Sequence record: NZ_CP102531.1
Source of the DNA: a plasmid
Length of the DNA stretch: 64,000 nt
Direction: 5' to 3' (one strand)
A program made the position numbers and the translations under genes. How positions within the stretch are numbered: position 1 is the first letter of the stretch; each line of letters opens with the position of its first letter. Positions 38,527-38,844 of the stretch are shown here, one piece after another. The notes beneath the pieces were generated by a model, which searched no databases, was not told where the DNA came from, and saw only the letters and a list, made by a program, of their open reading frames with translations.

Positions 38527-38555
38527 TTGACAGATGTCTCGAAATTGTGTACATT
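38527..38555 (+). promoter_or_regulatory. Sigma-A promoter of the cysteine cluster (TTGACA - 17 nt - TACATT)
   Basis: ttgaca at 38527-38532, a 17-nt spacer, and tacatt at 38550-38555. Confidence 0.5.
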
Positions 38556-38582
38556 AATCACAATAAAAATTTCGGAGGTGTC

Positions 38583-38660
38583 ATGATGAGTCAATCAATG
38601 TTTAATGCGATTAATTGTTGCTGTCGAACAACGCGTTTTTGGCGATGTTCGGCCTGTTAG
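38583..38660 (+). CDS. Cys-codon-rich leader peptide (25 aa: MMSQSMFNAINCCCRTTRFWRCSAC)
   Basis: RBS ggaggtg lies 4-5 nt upstream. Three consecutive Cys codons plus two more lie near the C-terminus. A strong terminator sits downstream and upstream of cysK. Confidence 0.45.
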   Translation: MMSQSMFNAINCCCRTTRFWRCSAC

Positions 38661-38728
38661 CATTGACGTTTTTTGGGAAATCATGACCTAAAAAGAGTTC
38701 AATGTCCACTTGGCTGGAGTTGAACTAA

Positions 38729-38769
38729 GGGCGCGAAAATTCTGGATTTCAGAATTTCGCGCCCTTTTT
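38729..38769 (+). terminator. Leader terminator (candidate attenuator) upstream of cysK
   Basis: gggcgcgaaaattctg-gattt-cagaatttcgcgccc followed by TTTTT. Sits about 75 bp before the cysK start. Confidence 0.6.
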
Positions 38770-38844
38770 CTATCTATTGCGGCCATTTCCCCTAGCATCC
38801 CGCCAGCTAAACACTGCTCCAAATGATTAGAAAGGATCTTATTT

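Follow-up and report, generated by a model that had tools for sequence, protein, structure and literature searches.

A probable cysteine-specific leader-peptide transcription attenuator upstream of the mobile cysK-ctl-cysE cluster of Lactobacillaceae

The leader of the cysK-ctl-cysE operon on the plasmid of record NZ_CP102531.1 has the make-up of a ribosome-mediated leader-peptide transcription attenuator, in which stalling of the ribosome at Cys codons would sense charged tRNA-Cys; we put the probability of this reading, which is based on sequence comparison and predicted folds, at roughly 85%. The element was studied in a window of 64,000 nucleotides (the whole stretch of plasmid DNA that was analysed) and in a non-redundant set of related leaders (n = 63), to which the counts given below refer. 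With somewhat less assurance, we consider it to be probably a previously unrecognised and Cys-specific attenuator, family-wide in Lactobacillaceae and carried along by the mobile cysK(-ctl-cysE) cluster. A first-pass annotation of the window had proposed attenuation of the trp/his/leu type for cysteine, and the proposal gains support from the covariation of three predicted helices (P1, AT and T), the conservation of the Cys run and the folds predicted for stalled ribosomes. All the sequence-level characteristics of ribosome-mediated attenuators are found in this leader. Its main linear features are the following:

38527-32 (TTGACA) and 38550-55 (TACATT), plus strand: promoter TTGACA-17-TACATT of the sigma-70/sigma-A type, 10/12 match to the consensus
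38574-78, plus strand: Shine-Dalgarno (SD) sequence GGAGG for the leader peptide, conserved to at least 90% in alignment A1
38583-38660, plus strand: leader peptide ORF MMSQSMFNAINCCCRTTRFWRCSAC, then stop, an open reading frame with GGAGG upstream
38616-24, plus strand: tandem Cys codons TGT TGC TGT, proposed stall site sensing Cys-tRNA(Cys), with a run of 2-3 Cys codons in 63/63 leaders
38727-66, plus strand: stem of the intrinsic terminator T (core GGGCGCG/CGCGCCC), with U5 at 38765-69, -25.5 kcal/mol

All the features that the first-pass annotation had listed for this region stand, with one minor correction. The promoter is present and is the best promoter-like site (10/12) between 38000 and 42000; the three consecutive Cys codons are accompanied, as described, by two more at 38646 and 38655; and the strong terminator, placed about 75 bp before the first cysteine gene, consists of the stem at 38727-66 and its U5 and lies 76 nt before the cysK ATG (38845). 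The 25-codon ORF with its ribosome-binding site is confirmed as an ORF at 38583-38660 preceded by GGAGG, but not in its exact length: the second ATG (38586) is 7 nt from GGAGG and is the only one conserved in relatives, so the peptide probably has 24 aa. Transcription probably starts near 38562, and the leader made from this promoter is ~205 nt long and ends at the strong terminator. Its predicted fold reaches -79 kcal/mol, far below that of shuffled sequences (z = -6.9). The small ORF is unannotated in the plasmid records pW56 and pLC1. The 9-mer TGYTGYTGY is common by itself, with 20 copies in the window; it is the whole arrangement, not the 9-mer alone, that recurs upstream of cysK homologues in many genera.

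Relatives were collected by a CysK protein scan with one genome per species, which gave 80 loci at 56-99% identity. In ~74 of the 76 usable loci, representing at least 13 genera, the cysK homologue is preceded by an ORF that contains tandem Cys codons. Such CC or CCC ORFs were found in nearly all Lactobacillaceae loci (Lactobacillus, Lentilactobacillus, Secundilactobacillus, Weissella, Oenococcus, Ligilactobacillus, Lactiplantibacillus, Lacticaseibacillus, Loigolactobacillus, Paucilactobacillus, Limosilactobacillus, Companilactobacillus and Periweissella), in Tetragenococcus and in one Streptococcus MAG. Only the Bacillales-like outgroups Terrilactibacillus (L073, L074) and Rummeliibacillus (L080) lack the Cys leader ORF; their cysK-ctl loci also have no T-box or S-box, and only copies of Bacillaceae-1 RNA occur nearby. 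The leader is present before cysK-ctl-cysE, cysK-ctl, cysK-cysE or a lone cysK. From the SD to the U-run it measures 167-211 nt in every case, and a -35/-10-like promoter holds the same relative place before the SD in 56/63 leaders. The element is carried by plasmids of L. paracasei and L. rhamnosus and, next to a CysK of 98-99% identity, by L. helveticus and a Streptococcus MAG. A differently built Cys leader was observed in Listeria grayi (L067:3795-3968), where the ORF MKNNTTLATKSCCLTRAYCCCAICIV carries two Cys runs and a candidate antiterminator strand, located just past the stop codon, pairs with the 5' arm of the terminator; in the free RNA the SD region competes for this strand.

Several observations indicate that the small ORF is read as codons. 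A tandem Cys run is found in all 63 leaders at codons 11-15 (two codons in 23 leaders, three in 40), and it begins after 10-14 codons. It is written in seven synonymous TGT/TGC combinations, with the TG positions invariant in the alignment, and the N-terminal codons before it vary freely, with alignment gaps in threes. In a frame-agnostic test, the best SD match was located (5-6 of 6 positions in 59/63 leaders) and then the first ATG 3-12 nt downstream of it; this ATG was in frame with the Cys run, and the reading stop-free, in 59/63 leaders, and it was out of frame in none. Four leaders (Oenococcus and one Tetragenococcus) are without a clear SD. The cysK genes themselves are nearly free of Cys codons (1 in 63 x 300 codons), which makes the run highly unusual in this context. 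The stop codon is placed 11 to 21 codons past the run. Taken over 63 diverged leaders, the sequence record shows the small ORF behaving like an element that is translated and under selection at its codons.

The first-pass annotation had pointed to folding of the leader as the way to find mutually exclusive antiterminator and terminator pairings. Such an antiterminator (AT) is found; it covaries and excludes T. The predicted helices besides T are the following:

38577-87 (SD/AUG) with 38680-89 (3' of the stop codon), plus strand: long-range helix P0, from the MFE fold
38623-34 (5' arm) with 38642-53 (3' arm), plus strand: P1 hairpin, anti-antiterminator ('1:2'), -15.0 kcal/mol
38632-42 (CGCGUUUUUGG) with 38725-35 (CUAAGGGCGCG), plus strand: antiterminator core AT, duplex -14.4 kcal/mol
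38632..38735, plus strand: extended AT long hairpin, -40.3 kcal/mol in the window
38696..38726, plus strand: hairpin B, directly 5' of the terminator, in the terminating fold only

The 5' arm of P1 starts inside the third Cys codon, and AT brings the 5' base of the terminator together with the inner arm and loop of P1. In the alignment, 83% of P1 cells are paired and 109 cells are changed on both sides, with a covariation of 0.448 vs 0.211 when shuffled and at most 0.18 when slid. The corresponding values are 86% paired and 0.408 vs 0.240 (at most 0.13 slid) for the AT core, and 80% paired and 0.334 vs 0.204 (at most 0.19 slid) for T (core 38729-64), in which 14/15 pairs show changes on both sides. 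Compensatory pairs of AT are, for example, GCGUCUUAUG with CAUAAGGCGC in L. reuteri, whose register maps to 38632-42/38725-35, and GCAUCUUAUGCG with CGUAUAAGGUGC in Companilactobacillus. From the alignment only, RNAalifold recovered the P1 core and T, and 12/12 predicted pairs show compensatory changes. Comparison of the leaders establishes the predicted helices P1, AT and T as conserved, covarying and mutually exclusive.

The remaining helices covary to a smaller degree. The long AT hairpin of this leader type, predicted in the window for the stalled state, takes up the 3' arms of both P1 and P0 together with hairpin B and the base of the terminator; its extension is 78% paired in the 27 long leaders vs 31-49% when slid. 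P0 covaries in part (e.g., GUCAUGAU/AUCAUGAC vs AUCAACAAU/AUUGUUGAU), and the SD/AUG is sequestered in the MFE fold of 61/63 leaders. The arms of hairpin B, whose covariation is weak to moderate, join the extended antiterminator in the alternative fold. Altogether, the moderate covariation of the extended AT, P0 and hairpin B, measured in 27 long leaders and limited by register errors of MAFFT, suggests that these are probable parts of the leader fold. P1 is followed by a U-run in about 20 leaders. In L051 and other loci of the L. reuteri group, UUUUU follows P1 directly (GUGAAUCGCGUCUUAUGCGACUCAC), inside the leader ORF; judged by its sequence, this P1-UUUUU is a possible hairpin-dependent pause site at which ribosome and polymerase would be brought into step.

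In the proposed mechanism, when Cys-tRNA is scarce the pioneer ribosome would stall with a Cys codon in the A site, and its front edge would open the outer 5' arm of P1 while 38632-42 stays free. This free strand would capture 38725-35 once it is transcribed; with AT formed, no terminator would fold, and RNA polymerase would enter cysK-ctl-cysE. When Cys-tRNA is ample, or when the ORF is untranslated, P1 would form or re-form behind the ribosome and keep 38632-42; with P1 held, hairpin B and T would fold and transcription would end at ~38769. P0 would then shut the leader's own SD and AUG once the leader is made.

Folding with modelled ribosomes was used to examine these steps. In the stall model, 28 nt were masked per ribosome and transcripts were cut just before the terminator 3' arm; only the folds of transcripts cut in this way are informative. 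With the A site on the first Cys codon, AT (at least 6 bp) was predicted in 62/63 leaders and P1 in one; with the A site on the second, AT was predicted in 55/63. Full-length free RNA folded into T in 62/63 leaders, and T was still the MFE structure in 56/63 when the stall mask was applied to full-length RNA, an outcome that is expected of a kinetic switch in this model and is no proof of one. In free RNA cut before the T 3' arm, AT was already the MFE structure in 29/63 leaders, and with a ribosome on the stop codon it was predicted in 44/63. Since equilibrium folding in these two cases fails to give the OFF state, Cys-replete termination, the weakest part of the proposed mechanism, would have to rest on kinetics. 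Fast local refolding of P1, a ribosome covering the AT strand during the synthesis of T, and pausing are the candidates.

Alternative helices exist whatever flips them, so the P1/AT/T switch could in principle be turned by a small ligand, by uncharged tRNA-Cys in a degenerate T-box-like manner or by an RNA-binding protein, with the ORF being incidental. In free RNA the energies of P1 and AT are nearly equal, as in ligand-tuned switches, and T-boxes or riboswitches are usual for such genes in Firmicutes. We nevertheless regard this explanation as unlikely. No family reaches the Rfam gathering score in the leader region; the sole match in the whole window is rli28, a Listeria sRNA family seen here on a plasmid of Lacticaseibacillus, at 5578-5763 on the minus strand (69.1 bits vs a threshold of 45). 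A T-box or S-box fold, named in the first-pass annotation as an explanation that would overturn its reading, has no match even at E<=10: when T-box, S-box and other Rfam families were tried on 38300-38950 at that cut-off, only snoRNA, lncRNA and miRNA noise was returned. There is likewise no T-box (RF00230) or S-box (RF00162) in 13 related loci, and other SAM riboswitch models have no match in the window, in 38300-38950 or in the 13 related loci. Against an incidental ORF stand the conserved SD/ATG, in frame with the Cys run in 59/63 leaders and out of frame in none, and the Cys codons, which vary synonymously only, after N-terminal codons that are free in sequence and kept to a length of 10-14. 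No conserved multi-helix pocket for a ligand was seen, and P1, AT and T account for all conserved nucleotides.

A terminator search confined to the sequence after the leader stop codon found, by script, a hairpin and U-run 3' of the leader ORF in 61/63 leaders; in two Oenococcus leaders (L045, L048) the hairpins were under the energy cut-off of the script and were placed by hand. The gap between terminator and cysK is mostly 24-50 nt in relatives, and no promoter-like site was seen between the two in the window, which leaves no room for a second promoter. The genes and flanks of the cluster in the window are the following:

34934-38101, minus strand: type I restriction gene hsdR, one flank of the cys cluster
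38845-39756, plus strand: cysK, cysteine synthase/CBS-like (NCBIfam, annotation)
39778-40962, plus strand: ctl, cystathionine lyase/synthase (NCBIfam, annotation)
40904 or 40928 to 41485, plus strand: cysE, serine O-acetyltransferase (NCBIfam, annotation)
41643-42430, plus strand: IS5-family transposase, split in two overlapping ORFs, the other flank of the cys cluster

Read from its first ATG (40904), cysE shares 59 nt with the end of ctl; with the database start (40928) the overlap is 35 nt. The hsdR and IS5 flanks fit the reported mobility of cysK-ctl-cysE. Several plasmids of L. paracasei and L. rhamnosus (e.g., pW56 and pLC1) match the segment 38400-41500 at 100% identity.

Some relatives differ downstream of the ORF. 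In L. reuteri L059, L070, L071 and L072, the usual terminator is replaced by a hairpin CGAGGCUGAG...CAGCCUCG with U6, located ~30-70 nt past the leader stop and directly 3' of the conserved CAUAAGGCG, and a further 105-177 nt separate it from cysK. Judging from the sequences, the antiterminator and the replacement terminator overlap by only ~2 nt in these four loci, so regulation may be altered. In Secundilactobacillus (L007-L015), the spacer between terminator and cysK is 230-320 nt long and contains 2-3 copies of a ~35-nt repeat (CATAGCTATCAGTTTTGTGGAACGCGTTAAGGCA-like) and a long inverted repeat; Rfam has no match in this spacer.

The terminator is also a palindrome, GGGCGCGAAA...TTTCGCGCCC, and could be taken for the DNA operator of a cysteine-responsive transcription factor, which would make the ORF and the hairpins irrelevant. 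As far as the citation in PMC6004538 goes, Liu et al. (2012) described this conserved palindrome before lactobacillus cystathionine synthase/lyase genes as a 'potential regulatory motif'. An operator seems very improbable to us here, as the palindrome lies downstream of the promoter and the ORF and has a U-run behind it in every leader, its halves covary (14/15 pairs changed on both sides) while sequence and loop length drift, and short 5'-UTR transcripts pile up in RNA-seq data (PMC6004538). According to one comparative reconstruction of Lactobacillales regulons, moreover, CmbR is found only in Streptococcaceae. That the unit, with its own promoter, SD and terminator and apparently conserved C-terminal residues (R..R..RC), is instead a stand-alone Cys-rich micro-protein or small RNA whose place before cysK is coincidental or loosely related can scarcely be credited, given that cysK lacks its own promoter and in most species starts 24-50 nt after the terminator, that the apparent peptide conservation past the Cys run falls exactly on the nucleotides of P1 and AT, that the stop position varies (11 to 21 codons after the run) and that the leader element is always linked to cysK.

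Published expression data bear on the proposed attenuator. In L. paracasei FAM18149, cysK2-ctl1-cysE2 was ~8-fold up in Cys-free vs Met-free medium (Wuthrich et al. 2018, PMC6004538), a contrast between two media that does not single out the sensor. The authors reported very high read coverage of the 5'-UTR, predicted a rho-independent terminator and inferred premature termination; they found no T-box or S-box, left the mechanism unidentified and mention no leader peptide (PMC6004538). The terminator in the window is identical to the FAM18149 motif AAGGGCGCGAAA-N16-TTTCGCGCCCTT. Constitutive read-through, which the first-pass annotation had raised against its own reading, is at odds with this published cysteine-dependent expression and premature termination (PMC6004538).

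In its logic, the Cys leader resembles the enterobacterial trp, his, leu, thr, pheA and ilv attenuators, which have a promoter-proximal ORF with tandem codons for the end product and a set of 1:2 anti-antiterminator, 2:3 antiterminator and 3:4 terminator helices, with the stall site immediately 5' of helix 1 and overlapping it. It differs from them in concerning cysteine, in belonging to Lactobacillaceae (Firmicutes), in taking the 5' strand of AT from P1 itself (inner arm plus loop) and not from a segment of its own, and in having an extra helix that sequesters its own SD/AUG; there is no sequence or covariance-model similarity to Trp_leader, His_leader, Leu_leader or Thr_leader. In B. subtilis, RNA polymerase outruns the ribosomes (review PMC7858274), so ribosome-coupled attenuation is less expected in this phylum. 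The attenuator specificities in surveys are only His, Leu, Thr and Trp, plus Ile/Val and Phe (PMC3766115). A literature search found no cysteine leader peptide in Lactobacillaceae, and a cysteine attenuator is not listed in the surveys of RNA regulons and Lactobacillales regulons.

Cysteine codons in upstream ORFs have been described in other phyla. The uORFC-8-2 motif, upstream of cysS in Rhodobacterales, is a predicted ribosome-mediated attenuator (Brewer et al. 2021, PMC8632094). Like the Cys leader, it has two tandem Cys codons (14-15) in its first stem and a terminator with a U-run; unlike the Cys leader, it occurs in Alphaproteobacteria and controls Cys-tRNA synthetase, not cysteine synthesis. 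No antiterminator covariation is reported for it (PMC8632094), and it is probably a different, unrelated sequence family. Mycobacteria have polycysteine leaderless sORFs (Ms5788A), and the authors who described them knew of no prior cysteine uORF attenuation (Canestrari et al. 2020, bioRxiv 10.1101/834739). Cys leader peptides have also been predicted in Actinobacteria, including one for the cbs gene of B. longum, with no terminators (PMC1262725). What these systems share with the Cys leader is that upstream runs of Cys codons sense cysteine for cysteine-related operons. The mycobacterial sORF opens a leaderless mRNA, and pairing of its Cys tract to the SD of the downstream gene gives translational control with no intrinsic terminator, whereas the ORF of the Cys leader is SD-led and would control an intrinsic terminator; in the window, the SD of cysK pairs locally with 38788-95 in the MFE fold and not with the Cys codons. 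Cys-specific T-boxes are known upstream of glnP2 on an L. paracasei FAM18149 plasmid and of C. perfringens cysK (PMC6004538). They resemble the Cys leader in responding to the charging of tRNA-Cys, in their terminator/antiterminator output and in occurring in the same bacteria, and they differ from it in being untranslated and in recognising uncharged tRNA by direct contact, for which they use a specifier codon and the T-box sequence.

If the reading is true, cysteine attenuators of the classical terminator/antiterminator type would here have their first example that is strongly backed by comparative evidence, and cysteine would be added to the few amino acids known to be sensed by leader-peptide attenuation of this type. 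The setting is Firmicutes, a phylum dominated by T-boxes and riboswitches, in which transcription is thought to outrun translation; functional timing between ribosome and RNA polymerase would then operate in a lineage of this phylum, possibly enforced by a pause at P1 (followed by a U-tract in the L. reuteri group) and by the SD-closing P0, which would limit translation to the pioneer ribosome. The leader is conserved in many genera, yet it was missed by genome annotation of lactic acid bacteria and by regulon reconstructions, and it would offer a compact natural Cys-responsive part for the engineering of lactobacilli. It also provides a testable mechanism for the cysteine repression that was described in 2012 and was unexplained in 2018 (PMC6004538). 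The operon concerned turns methionine into cysteine, and in cheese lactobacilli it shapes the sulfur flavour.
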